This document shows positions 11,601 to 17,837 of a stretch of DNA of 22,276 bases, piece after piece. The DNA lies in contig JBHLQH010000045.1 in NCBI GenBank assembly GCA_048884965.1, positions 1 through 22,276 of the forward strand, read 5' to 3'. Position numbers and translations under genes: made by a program. Position 1 is the first letter of the stretch. Each line of letters starts with the position of its first letter. Under the pieces are notes generated by a model. The model made no database searches, was not told the DNA's origin, and saw nothing but the letters and a program-made list of their open reading frames with translations. Origin of the DNA: Candidatus Thorarchaeota archaeon. GTDB lineage: Archaea > Asgardarchaeota > Thorarchaeia > Thorarchaeales > Thorarchaeaceae.

Positions 11601-14600
11601 CTACCCCTGCAATTCGTCTAGAAGGTGGAACTGGCTAACATATGATTGCCTCTTCCTTTTTCGGTGGATGATCAATACAGCACCGATTCCTAGGAATCCA
11701 AACAATATCACCAGCAATGTCAAATCAGGATATCCGAAAGTGAAACCAACCAACTCACCTGCTAACGCGTAGAGAGAGAGGTGAGTTACGTGTGCCCAGA
11801 TATATCCGGCATAGTGTTCACCGTGGAGTACGACGTCCGTTGTGTTGACACCCCAGTCAATTACCCATTCGAGGTCATCAGATAGTTTTACCCAAATGGC
11901 AGATTCTTCATCATAACAATACAGGCAAAGAGAAGTCTCATTCAAATCACCAATCAGGTCGATACTTCCATCATGGTTGAAGTCAAGGTCTGAGGTTCTA
12001 TAATAAATCTGAATCAGAGCGCTTTGAAGTGTGCCACTGGTTTCGCCATTGAATCCTAGAATAATTTCTACATACTTACCCATAGGAACCTCATTCTCAG
12101 CGAGACCCGTATCTGATGCTAATTGGTATGGAGTCGTGTTGGTAGTATACCGTTGCATGGAAAGCGTTGGTAGCGAAAGGCCACTAAGGGCTATGGTCAG
12201 AATCGTATCAGTCGCCTTCATTGTATCTATCTCGTTCACAGCAAAGGCATACGCGTATGTGTCGCTATCCGTGATCACAGGAACTTGGTATTCAAGGAAG
12301 ACTGAATCAGGAAGTACAGAGATGTTTCTGCCTCGGAGTATCTGTAGAACACTGTATACATCAGTCGTATAGGCTTCCGAGAGGATGACTATCGTCTGCG
12401 GGTCAGCCCAATAGCCATGCCTAGTTGCAACCTCGTGGGATTCCGGTTCCATCATCTCACCCAATACAGCCCCAGCATCTTCCAACAATGAATAAGTCAG
12501 ACCAGCGACAGTTTCACTCCCTGCATCAGGACGACCCACTAGAACAATGTATGGATATACTGTGTAGGACTCCTTGAGTTCCTCCACCGAAACCGTGATT
12601 ACATTTGCGTACTCCTGTAGCTTCTGTGCAAAGAATAAGGTGTTGTTCTGTTCATCAGGGTCATAGGCTAGGATTATAGGTCCGCTCCAAGTGCTGAACG
12701 TATCAGGGTCCTCGCTATCTGGCACTCCGTCTCGATCCGAATCACTACTCCACGGATTGCTGCCCCACTCCAATTCTACACCATCGAGAACGCCGTCTCC
12801 GTCTGTATCGTTATTCAAGGGATTCAACCAGAGCTGTATCTCCAGCCAATCGGACACATTATCACCATCAGAATCGCTGCTGAACGGATTTGTCCCGAAT
12901 AACGCTTCATCTCCATCGACGATGCCATCTCCATCAACATCAGCGTTCAGGGGACTAGTGCCAGTGTCGTACTCAGCTCCATCGAACGCAAAGTCACCAT
13001 CCGAATCAGCCACGAGCAAGCTGGAGTTTCCTGCATACTCCTCGGCATCCGTCGCTACATCGTCGTCGGTATCGATCTTGTTCGGATCGGAGTTGAGCTG
13101 GAACTCCAGAAGGTCTGAGAGAGTATCGCCATCAGAATCTGGCAATGTGGGGTCACTTCCAAAGGCGAGTTCAACCCCGTCCCCAAGCGAGTCCCCATCA
13201 CTGTCCCAGTGAGTCAGGCTCATGGTAGAAACCATGCCAGTACTCGGGACGCCAATTCTAGGTGCCAGATATTGTGGATGAATCGTTGGGGCTATATATT
13301 CCTCGTCAGGGTAGAGTCCAATCCACCACTCTTGATGGTCAGAAACGCCATCTGCATCAGAATCAGGACACTGCGGATTCGAGGTGAGGTTGTACTCAAG
13401 GTAGTCACTCAGATGATCGCCATCCGTATCACTCAGACGAGGATCGCTTGTCACATTGAATGTCATTGTGCAGGTCGCATTGAAGGCAACTGTGATCTCC
13501 CAGCCTGCGACCTCCTGTTGATTGGTCAGGCCATCACCATCCCAATCAGGATTATCATCAGTCAAACATGGGTCGACTGATGTAATCTCTTGAGACAGTT
13601 TGATTATTATATGCTCACCACTAGAATAGTTACTACTAGTGATGTAGACGTTCTTCTCCAAGTCGATACATATTGCATTCTCGCGTGGTTCTTCGATTAC
13701 GTCAGTTAAGTTCATCCTGAAATTCATATCCTCCAAGCCGTTCCGATCAAACTTACAAAGATATTTACGATCCGGATTATCCTCCCATCCAAGAGCGTAA
13801 AGATAACCATCATCGTCCACGGTAAACTCGTGCATATCATAGAATTCTGTCATGGGAATCCTACCAAGGTAACTACCATCGATTGCACTCATACGAATTA
13901 TATAACCAAGAACGATATCGTCGACCCAACAGCATGCTACATATAGAAGCCCATTTGCATCATCGACTTCAATCCTGTAAGGGCGATCCCAAGAGTAATC
14001 GCGTCCAGGAACTTCCCAAGATGCCAAGAGGTTTCCAGCAGAGTCATATTTCCTCACATAGGGATCCTCAGTCGTATAGATGCTCGAATCTGCACCAATA
14101 TCAACATCAAAAAACCATTCACTGGAAAAAGGAGTCCAAGAGTCGGGATTTAGGATTGTACCATCAAGCGAGTAACGTTGTATCACAGTGTCGTACGAAC
14201 CAGGTGCTTCTGTAGCGTTGAGCACGTAAATCCAATCATTTGCATCATCAATGGCAAATCCTCCACTCCTCCATGCCAAATCTAATTCATTGAAATAGGA
14301 GAGTTCAGGAAGTTGTGCCTCTGTGAGATTCGTGTAATATCTTTTGATTCCTTGAAAAGAAGGTGCCAAGTGATCAGTCCCAGAGTAAAGGTATCCATGA
14401 TTATCAGTAGCCAAAGAGTAGTACCCAATCGGTACTTCAATCAGTTCTTCTAGAGTAGGATGAGATTCGATTCTTGGCAGAACCTCATCACAACGTCCAT
14501 CGCCATTTGTATCATCGCTTCTGGGATTGGTATGACTATGATATTCATCAAGGTCGCTTACAGCATCGCCATCACTATCGTTCATGCAAGGATCGGATGT

Positions 14601-17600: not shown

Positions 17601-17837
17601 CCTATTGGCTAGTGGAGTCACCAACTGAAGCTCTGTTACTAGCTCCTTCAATGATACCGGAACTTTTGGTGGACCAAATTCGGCAAGTACGCTCCTAAGG
17701 AGATCTTCAGAAGACCGCAATGGAGAGTTTTCCTCAGATTTACTCATCTGAGGATGATTCACAGCATTCTTGATGTCCGCTCCGAAGAATAGGACCACGA
17801 TAAAGAATGTGATGAAAACTATCTGGAAACGCCTCAT
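11601..17837 (-). CDS. Giant (2078 aa) cell-surface Ca-binding repeat glycoprotein: beta-trefoil, hydrophobic helical segment, beta-propeller, C-terminal TM anchor
   Basis: Signal peptide MRRFQIVFITFFIVVLFF, about 21 DxDxDG-type repeats in three blocks, many N-x-S/T sequons, and a C-terminal TM followed by HRKRKR. Confidence 0.9.
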   Translation of the reverse strand: MRRFQIVFITFFIVVLFFGADIKNAVNHPQMSKSEENSPLRSSEDLLRSVLAEFGPPKVPVSLKELVTELQLVTPLANRTDCDGDGLWDVIESVIGTDFNDTDSDRDTLNDTFEVFNDLDPLAADSNEDDIPDNHEVMNVNSLDVDNDGIPNAWDFDNDNDGVSDAVDISPNAKSSIHDAFDIDIATDGKPLYISFQIIPDNPQHARLLEQWWDWPNDAKDRMQDLDGSQRDVQVLPFLNLTIDFCIDANLFEGYPMIATSNGLLLALNSVYDSGNIVALESRMYIPKMASTNLSMHAELIWKVVGQTDKKAIALIDEEGVYISSSFGDLAVANTTDILSACPIQKIDLGDGKIALKEIGGGFLSVSTGGSMYFNGTEVGPREILQSCAISSDQITLQSIATGLYVATSANGQLIANSTYEEVFQIADLGIYPEPITLEIYDDSFMFSGISIQECYYSSMGVYYSDNRNQTIAAQGLLTYHFLRNSTTSLWDIPRVLAEDEICLMYQNQSYLGVDHAYVSLSNSILPAALDSLPALKVLPVIIAAEHEIKVVDLSEIIEGSYVAEQLLHFDMDLYNTSIVKSLSCYFYNTTTYETLSIEQITDVIQSWGYDETTTNALILMIYKFSVGESIIDHGKFTNELPDISIVDSWVLFAKGVIGTFGDEILLMTPKLLRSLLDKHFIWPKTRPRSNAIWSSVASSSKAATTVQKVSKFLKSNAIAILCIVIDVGLSIYAAFLIAQQIGGRLGKEIGATYGTISSAISLAIGIPLLFLAAAGPVGFGIAAIISLVLMVAELLGGAISKLVEWLTETIFGSRDEIASTTPSAALSNLAFELSDATLSVGDRITLFCNVIGDITGSGAEQQRWVGESYNIPRINIDQPSGSNSITGVSGTEDYTLLKNTLYGLVPGDYWEARMYNYSAWIEPGIASPNFPVAIRMHLNYHIWDIWSHDVLGLFECRHNDDYYDSIDYEYTRVYFDVMPDSLNAFIEWRSIQALDSYIVYDSDCDELGDAFEANLGTNARKSDSDGDGLSDYYEYIYGTNATNTDSDGDGLFDYLEVAGWQIGFDYMANSSNHFEMLVTSDPCMNDSDGDAVSDLDEYHSHTNPRSDDTNGDGRCDEVLPRIESHPTLEELIEVPIGYYSLATDNHGYLYSGTDHLAPSFQGIKRYYTNLTEAQLPELSYFNELDLAWRSGGFAIDDANDWIYVLNATEAPGSYDTVIQRYSLDGTILNPDSWTPFSSEWFFDVDIGADSSIYTTEDPYVRKYDSAGNLLASWEVPGRDYSWDRPYRIEVDDANGLLYVACCWVDDIVLGYIIRMSAIDGSYLGRIPMTEFYDMHEFTVDDDGYLYALGWEDNPDRKYLCKFDRNGLEDMNFRMNLTDVIEEPRENAICIDLEKNVYITSSNYSSGEHIIIKLSQEITSVDPCLTDDNPDWDGDGLTNQQEVAGWEITVAFNATCTMTFNVTSDPRLSDTDGDHLSDYLEYNLTSNPQCPDSDADGVSDHQEWWIGLYPDEEYIAPTIHPQYLAPRIGVPSTGMVSTMSLTHWDSDGDSLGDGVELAFGSDPTLPDSDGDTLSDLLEFQLNSDPNKIDTDDDVATDAEEYAGNSSLLVADSDGDFAFDGAEYDTGTSPLNADVDGDGIVDGDEALFGTNPFSSDSDGDNVSDWLEIQLWLNPLNNDTDGDGVLDGVELEWGSNPWSSDSDRDGVPDSEDPDTFSTWSGPIILAYDPDEQNNTLFFAQKLQEYANVITVSVEELKESYTVYPYIVLVGRPDAGSETVAGLTYSLLEDAGAVLGEMMEPESHEVATRHGYWADPQTIVILSEAYTTDVYSVLQILRGRNISVLPDSVFLEYQVPVITDSDTYAYAFAVNEIDTMKATDTILTIALSGLSLPTLSMQRYTTNTTPYQLASDTGLAENEVPMGKYVEIILGFNGETSGTLQSALIQIYYRTSDLDFNHDGSIDLIGDLNETSLCLYCYDEESAIWVKLSDDLEWVIDWGVNTTDVVLHGEHYAGYIWAHVTHLSLYALAGELVGFTFGYPDLTLLVILFGFLGIGAVLIIHRKRKRQSYVSQFHLLDELQG
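12702..13547 (-). repeat. Coding tandem repeat block: 11 DxDxD(G) Ca-binding units, mostly with a 22-aa period
   Basis: For example DSDGDSLGDGVELAFGSDPTLP / DSDGDTLSDLLEFQLNSDPNKI / DTDDDVATDAEEYAGNSSLLVA. Confidence 0.85.

Follow-up and report, generated by a model that had tools for sequence, protein, structure and literature searches.

A giant, probable surface adhesin of a Thorarchaeota archaeon with a predicted GAIN/MAIN-like autoproteolysis site and a putative internal membrane anchor

Microbial surface proteins with GAIN-like autoproteolytic domains, archaeal ones among them, are already established (bioRxiv 10.64898/2026.05.12.724683). In that preprint Brogan and Rudner showed experimentally that MAIN domains cut themselves between X and S/T of a conserved HX(S/T) motif; the resulting fragments stay together, and the domains are seated between adhesion or enzyme domains and the surface anchor (bioRxiv 10.64898/2026.05.12.724683). 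Their sequence conservation is weak, and they give no sequence-level match to GPS or GAIN (bioRxiv 10.64898/2026.05.12.724683). Here we describe a gene on the minus strand of a 22,276-nucleotide stretch of DNA from a Candidatus Thorarchaeota archaeon (assembly GCA_048884965.1, contig JBHLQH010000045.1, positions 1 to 22,276; hereafter the window), whose product of 2078 amino acids (aa) contains a juxtamembrane module that, in a predicted structure, fits these MAIN domains. We think it probable that this protein is a giant, probably N-glycosylated, Ca-stiffened surface adhesin or receptor, attached to the membrane at three points and extending two arms outward. The domain folds of this predicted architecture come from structure and profile tools, and we infer its topology.

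In the architecture that we favor, arm 1 (aa ~27-643) would bear five Ca loops of the TSP3 type, a beta domain into which a lectin-type trefoil is inserted, and an alpha/beta domain. A central block (aa ~644-812) would cross the membrane an even number of times and so anchor the protein in its own membrane, while on arm 2 (aa ~813-2030) a beta domain would be followed by four TSP3 loops and an NHL propeller, then by a TSP3 stalk of 11 loops, and last by an alpha/beta domain and the GAIN/MAIN-like sandwich, ahead of a transmembrane (TM) helix and a short basic cytoplasmic tail. By analogy with bacterial MAIN domains and with the GAIN domains of G-protein-coupled receptors of the adhesion class (aGPCRs), on which we model the mechanism, the GAIN-like domain would cut itself at L2020|S2021, and the last strand, joined to the TM helix, would remain hydrogen-bonded in the sandwich. 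Arm 2 would then be a loop closed by a non-covalent latch that a pull on the binding modules could tear open, with the large fragment still tethered through the central block and a 58-residue stub of strand, TM helix and tail remaining in the membrane. The fast-diverging trefoil, beta2 domain and propeller of the five paralogs in the genome would give them differing ligand specificities. The modules and the basis on which each is placed are listed here (AF2, AlphaFold2; pLDDT, predicted local distance difference test; HMM, hidden Markov model; KD, Kyte-Doolittle).

11601 to 17837, minus strand: whole open reading frame (ORF), 2078 aa plus stop, from ORF reading.
17760 to 17837, minus strand: signal peptide or N-terminal signal anchor, MRR plus a hydrophobic stretch, aa 1-26 (KD peak 2.36; kept in relatives).
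17598 to 17759, minus strand: linker with the motif PP[RK]xPxxLKELVxEL..VTP, aa 27-80 (alignment).
17331 to 17597, minus strand: TSP3-type Ca-binding repeats, 5 motifs, aa 81-169 (Pfam and motif count).
16917 to 17330, minus strand: n1, a beta-rich domain of the family core, aa 170-307 (AF2 pLDDT about 80-89; its domain HMM recurs in the family).
16542 to 16916, minus strand: beta-trefoil of the fascin/FRG1/ricin-like lectin fold, aa 308-432, an optional insertion in the family.
15939 to 16541, minus strand: mid, an alpha/beta domain of the family core, aa 433-633 (AF2, domain HMM).
15690 to 15938, minus strand: weakly hydrophobic helix H0 (about aa 644-662) and basic loop, aa 634-716 (charge count in relatives; low pLDDT).
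15402 to 15689, minus strand: hydrophobic helical block H1-H4, aa 717-812 (alignment, hydrophobicity, AF2).
14886 to 15395, minus strand: beta2, a beta-sandwich-like domain of the family core, aa 815-984 (AF2, domain HMM).
14478 to 14852, minus strand: TSP3-type Ca repeats, 4 motifs, aa 996-1120 (Pfam and motif count).
13593 to 14441, minus strand: NHL-type six-blade beta-propeller, aa 1133-1415 (paralog profile against PDB sequences).
12702 to 13565, minus strand: TSP3-type Ca stalk, 11 motifs (3+8), aa 1425-1712 (Pfam, NCBIfam, motif count).
12336 to 12692, minus strand: flavodoxin-like alpha/beta domain with YIVLVGRPD, aa 1716-1834, always paired with the next domain.
11748 to 12335, minus strand: GAIN_B/ZU5-like beta-sandwich (MAIN-like domain), aa 1835-2030.
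11775 to 11783, minus strand: H2019-L2020-S2021, predicted autoproteolysis site, cut expected at L2020/S2021 (turn position, register, conservation).
11667 to 11723, minus strand: C-terminal TM helix, aa 2039-2057 (KD peak 2.88; helix in AF2).
11604 to 11666, minus strand: cytoplasmic tail, HRKRKR and a terminal hLxELxx-type motif, aa 2058-2078 (basic cluster, alignment).

The module on which our reading turns is the juxtamembrane sandwich. An AF2 model of aa 1715-2078, built from a 27-row alignment (mean pLDDT 87.5; predicted template modelling score 0.78), consists of the flavodoxin-like alpha/beta domain (model residues 1-120), the beta-sandwich (121-316) and a long helix (325-363). Foldseek, to which an earlier note on this DNA, made from its letters, had looked for domain identities, places GAIN domains at the top of the PDB matches to this model, namely those of BAI3 (E 2.3e-5, probability 1.00), CELSR1, CD97, BAI2 and latrophilin-1, and the model falls within the GAIN_B-type beta-sandwich fold; VIA-align gave 8.8 for ankyrin and 8.3 for NLRP1 among the related ZU5/FIIND folds. 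The tripeptide HLS occupies model residues 305-307, in the turn that joins the last strand but one (297-303) to the final strand (308-315), and, with the last strand ending at aa 2029 and the TM helix beginning at aa 2039, the domain lies directly before a surface anchor and after a signal and adhesion domains. L2020, model residue 306, is the last position reached by each of the alignments to latrophilin-1 chain A (residue 837), GPR56 (382), GPR110 (566), Gpr126 (827) and GPR97 (249). These five chains are N-terminal cleavage fragments whose final residue, at least in GPR56 (L382|T383) and latrophilin-1 (L837|T838), is the Leu of H-L|T, and the register of HL|S therefore matches that of the GPS site.

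HLS is also conserved. Among 27 copies from related genomes the position reads HLS in 19, HFS in 1, RLS in 3, KLS in 1, DLS in 1, ELR in 1 and ELH in 1, so that H-[LF]-S is kept in 20 of them; among 77 representative clusters H-[LF]-S is found in about 51 and H-x-C in 2. The five copies of the source genome have HLS in the window gene and in those on contigs C22 and C48, RLS in that on C32 and ELH in that on C12. A conserved majority together with a minority that has no catalytic His is also the pattern of adhesion GPCRs. We considered that HLS might be a chance tripeptide and rejected this because of its structural position, its register and its conservation. By predicted fold and by register HLS marks a GAIN/ZU5-type autoproteolysis site, in support of the autoprocessing suggested in the earlier note, and cleavage at it is predicted.

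Several described systems resemble this arrangement in part. MAIN proteins such as YfkN of Bacillus subtilis are alike in module order, with a signal, a large adhesion-type ectodomain and a GAIN_B-like sandwich by the anchor, and the window protein shares with them the H-hydrophobic-S in the last beta-turn, the large size and the upstream lectin or adhesion modules. It differs from them in being anchored by a TM helix rather than by sortase or SLH and in having a fixed alpha/beta domain ahead of the sandwich; its cleavage, unlike theirs, is predicted, and its internal block would retain the N-terminal fragment, so that what is release in MAIN proteins would become unlatching here. The n1-mid-block-beta2 core is not described in the text of the preprint (bioRxiv 10.64898/2026.05.12.724683), and our literature searches on Asgard archaea found no description of the n1-mid-block-beta2 family. 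The earlier note had been unable to name a characterised family with this architecture; that statement gives way for the juxtamembrane module, which matches MAIN, and stands for the rest of the family. What distinguishes the family is the n1-mid-block-beta2 core, the fixed pair of alpha/beta and GAIN-like domains, TM anchoring and a second, internal anchor.

The GAIN domains of aGPCRs and of polycystin-type proteins (4dlo, BAI3; 4dlq, latrophilin-1; 9mqr, CD97) have the same subdomain B fold. Further likenesses to aGPCRs are H-L-S/T in register, the position directly before the membrane, members that have no catalytic His, and a hydrophobic last strand, SLYALAG, which compares with the tethered peptide of aGPCRs. 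In contrast to aGPCR GAIN domains, the window protein has no helical subdomain A, no GPS disulfides and no Pfam GPS/GAIN match. It has one TM helix instead of seven, and coupling to G proteins is not conceivable. ZU5 and FIIND domains (ankyrin ZU5, the FIIND of NLRP1 and CARD8, UNC5, PIDD) are cytoplasmic eukaryotic domains, unlike the window protein. FIIND and PIDD have a self-cleavage site of the H/S-F-S type; the register evidence at L2020 comes from aGPCR GAIN chains and not from ZU5.

All the modules that the earlier note had picked out (signal or anchor, Ca blocks, trefoil, hydrophobic block, propeller, alpha/beta domain, THLSLYAL, TM helix and tail) are present in the ORF, far beyond chance, and their collinear architecture recurs in the paralogs and in about 75 clusters. 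The N-terminus reads MRR and then a 17-residue hydrophobic stretch. We note that the linker motif stands directly after this signal or anchor and that L63, L66 and L70 within it are invariant family-wide. There are 20 D-x-D-x-D-type motifs, at aa 81-168 (5), 1002-1098 (4), 1431-1503 (3) and 1545-1710 (8), taking the form of the TSP3 Ca loop (D-x-D-x-D-G-x-x-D-x-x-E), and the repeats are those of Pfam TSP3_bac (PF18884; E 2.8e-13, 49.8 bits against a cut-off of 25); the 11 units that the earlier note had seen in the long stalk are all there, in two groups of three and eight rather than in one run. In the fold search with an 841-residue N-terminal model the hit lists were filled by beta-trefoils, the three-fold structure to which aa 308-432 can be assigned; when the whole protein and eight segments of it were searched against Pfam and NCBIfam, TSP3 and weak trefoil matches were all that came up. 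The propeller of the 2078-aa protein taken alone stays under the Pfam thresholds; a profile of the five paralogs run against PDB sequences matched the NHL domain of Thin from Drosophila (E 4.4e-15), TRIM71 (6.9e-13), Pizza6 (1.2e-11) and PknD (1.1e-7), and Pfam NHL was detected in 5 of 14 relatives. The whole protein contains 16% D+E and 5% K+R. The earlier note had pictured a modular contact protein that is displayed on the surface, stiffened by Ca and equipped with binding modules of lectin and propeller type, and this picture is supported.

Runs of bacterial-type TSP3 Ca repeats in a surface adhesion protein are shared with CglD and MtsD of Myxococcus xanthus. The corresponding NCBIfam models, NF033765 and NF047639, scored 92.3 bits (cut-off 400) and 80.1 bits (cut-off 800), through the repeats only, and beyond these the proteins have no domain in common. 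With teneurins, thrombospondin/COMP and other metazoan adhesion proteins the window protein shares NHL, TSP type-3 Ca repeats, lectin-like domains and, in the case of partner receptors, a juxtamembrane autoproteolytic domain, although the order of modules differs and the window protein has no YD shell, EGF or toxin domain. Such metazoan-like modules are common in bacteria too, and the likeness shows no special link between Asgard archaea and eukaryotes.

The second feature that sets the protein apart is the hydrophobic block. AF2 predicts four helices within it (aa 717-742, 744-774, 777-797 and 799-812), of which the first two, H1 and H2, show strong hydrophobicity (KD peaks of 2.47 and 2.44 over 19 residues). 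A glycine zipper between H1 and H2 (G743/G744-G747-G751-G755) is invariant, as are I732, I742 and Y754, and acidic residues recur inside H1 and H3. The block is conserved in all relatives, bacterial ones included, in a shared layout of hydrophobic helix, short Gly-rich loop and hydrophobic helix, followed by an IPxVG turn, a shorter helix with an acidic residue and an amphipathic helix. The earlier note would have counted it against its own reading if neither this segment nor HLS were conserved; both are. H0, at about aa 644-662, has a KD value of 1.34 in the window protein and of 0.7-2.2 in relatives, and the loop between H0 and H1 is 47-79 residues long with a net charge of +2 to +13 in 25 of 25 relatives (10 K/R against 3 D/E in the window protein). 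In a protein so rich in acidic residues a loop of this charge stands out. The regions after the block are net negative. Under the positive-inside rule, the basic loop that precedes H1 qualifies well as a candidate cytoplasmic loop; in that case the block would pass the membrane four times (H0 to H3), or twice as an H1-H2 hairpin if H0 does not span it.

An even number of passes agrees with the sequons found in both arms, with the acidic region after the block and with a cytoplasmic tail. N-x-S/T sequons exceed the expectation from composition 2.3-fold in arm 1 and 2.05-fold in arm 2 and are absent from aa 590-916. The protein has 1.54 of them per 100 aa, whereas the median for the proteome is 0.36. 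In Hel/Prometh-type relatives HhH/DUF4332 domains stand beyond the C-terminal TM helix, on tails of about 190-500 residues, which argues that this side of the helix is cytoplasmic. After the GAIN-like domain a TM helix follows at once in 21 clusters and after an extension in 30, and 25 have none. Since this end varies while the block is constant, we take the block to be the membrane anchor that all members of the family have in common; an anchor in the protein's own membrane is the simplest reading of it. Were this so, self-cleavage could not shed the ectodomain and would only free the C-terminal end of the second arm, which speaks against the shedding that the earlier note had envisaged. We also note that relatives of the L023-L029 clade have no TM helix after the GAIN-like domain; an extension of about 150 residues and a tail rich in Trp, His, Cys and Arg (WRPxWWHxxWWH...) follow it, and self-cleavage in this clade would free a small C-terminal piece rather than a large one. 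In the window protein, the terminal motif hLxELxx at aa 2070-2078 (window 11604-11630, minus strand) is common to the five paralogs and to several relatives and is missing from other relatives. Its forms are HLLDELQG, SLLNELID, DLLDDLLDS, ALDKLLV.. and DIVHELSE, and it may serve as a cytoplasmic docking motif.

A GAIN-like site in register with the GPS site of aGPCRs raises the possibility that the protein is a mechanosensory receptor, in which force strips the N-terminal fragment from the cleaved GAIN-like domain and the exposed stub passes a signal into the cell, by regulated intramembrane proteolysis or via the conserved motif of the tail, as in adhesion GPCRs, Notch and clostridial RsgI. 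The recurrence of the short terminal motif in several paralog and relative tails and the long cytoplasmic tails of Hel/Prometh-type relatives, with HhH and DUF4332, would suit such a receptor, and there is bacterial precedent for autoproteolysis plus signalling (PMC10328401). We nevertheless think it quite unlikely: the tail of the window protein has only 21 residues, the motif is missing in many relatives, about a third of clusters have no TM helix after the domain, and no cognate protease or regulator was found linked in the gene neighborhood. An equally slender chance attaches to the proposal that the block and the stub of strand, TM helix and tail together form the membrane unit of a minimal adhesion-receptor force sensor, with the stub signalling after rupture of the latch. 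A complex prediction of the helical block with the post-cleavage C-terminal stub, run without controls, returned a score of 0.00 and weighs neither for nor against it. If this proposal were true, GAIN-based transmembrane mechanosignalling, going beyond release, would be an archaeal invention older than animal adhesion GPCRs, and the signal would run through the tail motif in the window protein and through HhH/DUF4332 in Hel/Prometh-type relatives.

A hydrophobic glycine-zipper hairpin amid an acidic ectodomain could also be read, as in the earlier note, as part of a releasable toxin or membrane-inserting effector, whose shielded ectodomain helices insert into a neighbor's membrane after release. 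MAIN domains are at times fused to toxins (bioRxiv 10.64898/2026.05.12.724683). A search of the ESM Atlas with aa 433-1000 gave a best value of 0.82, to unnamed clusters, and, among the nearest named clusters, those of the colicin pore domain and RTX lie at 0.76-0.77, a range in which matches often arise by chance. Lysenin appears in the fold searches solely via its trefoil. Neither Pfam nor NCBIfam nor the fold search, in which n1, mid and beta2 were not searched singly, brought up a toxin, pore-forming or enzymatic family. Moreover, the block has four helices only and no amphipathic shell in which to hide them, the loop ahead of H1 is basic in 25 of 25 relatives, as would suit the cytoplasmic loop of a resident membrane protein, and no immunity-like small gene is conserved beside the five paralogs; if the block sits in the membrane of the producing cell, a cut at HLS cannot set the protein free. 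Insertion into another cell's membrane is left without positive support, the features of the block being those of an anchor in the cell's own membrane, and we regard it as extremely doubtful.

The surface adhesin or receptor that we favor belongs to a large family. The source genome has four further full-length paralogs, on contigs C12, C22, C32 and C48, that are 36-45% identical to the window protein and collinear with it end to end, so that its five copies lie on five different contigs; in other genomes head-to-tail tandem pairs are frequent (G320:C1, G332:C25, G328:C52/C79, G347:C23). Close relatives are annotated as Thorarchaeota, Sifarchaeia and Helarchaeota, in keeping with the Asgard-type origin that the earlier note had guessed. 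A profile of aa 170-1010 run against 1.84 billion representatives retrieved 1877 proteins with E<=1e-3 (202 with E<=1e-30), and domain HMMs built from our own family alignments detected the collinear architecture in about 75 distinct 50%-identity clusters. In these the order is fixed, n1, optional trefoil, mid, helical block and beta2, then a variable middle, and then the alpha/beta and GAIN-like domains. Named members come from Promethearchaeota, Thermoplasmata/Thermoplasmatota and Methanolobus sp. (WP_292464247.1). Bacterial giants, too, contain the n1-mid-beta2 core and, lying between mid and beta2, a hydrophobic block; one of them, a Firmicutes protein, has the core, with the GAIN-like module undetected and SLH domains at its C-terminus. 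We considered an Asgard-specific family and rejected it on account of the members in Thermoplasmatota, Methanolobus and some bacteria; by its sequences the family is archaeal-wide with bacterial outliers. Its distribution is patchy: with the C-terminal module as query, 17 of 400 genomes from the phylum and 14 of 85 from the taxonomic family had a match.

Identity among the five paralogs is 25% in the trefoil, 25% in beta2 and 28% in the NHL propeller, compared with 44% in the alpha/beta and GAIN-like domains and 55-59% in the TSP3 repeats. Divergence is fastest in the putative binding modules, as would suit a diversification of the ligands recognised. The same figures bear on a different view, in which the five paralogs are bulk parts of the envelope, a glycocalyx or S-layer-like canopy of fixed height on Ca-stiffened stalks that binds no specific ligand and uses its GAIN-like domain for assembly or turnover. 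The TSP3 scaffold is indeed the best-conserved part, the sequon load is heavy, and each of the five paralogs in the genome is a stand-alone gene, with no gene neighbors common to the five loci. The patchy distribution is, however, unlike that of an essential wall component, the lectin-type trefoil and the NHL propeller are binding modules and the fastest-diverging parts, and the match to 9fsa was level with those to LacI/PBP and MoaB folds. We consider a structural coat rather unlikely.

Against the adhesin that we favor must be set that it is built on sequence and predicted structures, and that adhesion is deduced from the types of domain present. The core domains n1, mid and beta2 are without a fold assignment. 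The assignment of the GAIN-like domain is at the level of predicted fold only: the Pfam GPS and GAIN models gave no match at E up to 10, and a family profile of the C-terminal module run against PDB sequences gave no GAIN match and one spurious match at E 0.12. The catalytic His is lost in 7 of 27 copies, so cleavage would not be family-wide. The topology of the block is our own deduction; H0 is weakly hydrophobic, H3 is short and contains an acidic residue, and AF2 confidence is 65-86 in the block and below 50 in the preceding loop.

The gene itself is a single unbroken ORF of 2078 codons plus stop, from the ATG at 17837 to the stop at 11601 on the minus strand, beginning at the first in-frame ATG downstream of a stop, with an AGGA-containing stretch a few bases 5' of that ATG. 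It contains no DNA-level tandem repeats, and an Rfam search of the window matched nothing. The genome that carries it comprises 4.09 Mb in 99 contigs, and its neighbors in the window are unrelated housekeeping-type genes. Among them are a beta-lactamase-fold protein (18859-20103, plus strand; Pfam E 4e-55) and a protein in which part of the catalytic domain of 2-oxoacid dehydrogenase acyltransferases is recognised (17985-18809, minus strand; E 2e-13); neither is found again beside the other paralogs. The contig opens with a tRNA-Cys (GCA) gene (window 1-74, minus strand). Two ORFs, of 243 aa (8639-9370, minus strand) and 159 aa (9524-10003, minus strand), have no Pfam match at E<=0.01, and the roughly 470 bp between the latter and the flavodoxin gene (10004-10471) contain no listed ORF of at least 80 aa.

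Asgard archaea are the closest known relatives of eukaryotes and live in close physical association with partners, yet almost nothing is known of the molecules on their surface. The family described here offers a concrete candidate, a multi-paralog set of giant glycoprotein adhesins. Because it is found also in Thermoplasmatota, in Methanosarcinales-type archaea and in some bacteria, it says nothing specific about eukaryote origins. It would extend the MAIN concept to anchoring by a TM helix, to giant archaeal carriers and to a second, internal anchor, and that internal anchor shifts what self-cleavage could do, toward unlatching or signalling rather than shedding. The member in Methanolobus sp. 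belongs to a cultivable genus, which makes experiments on the family feasible.

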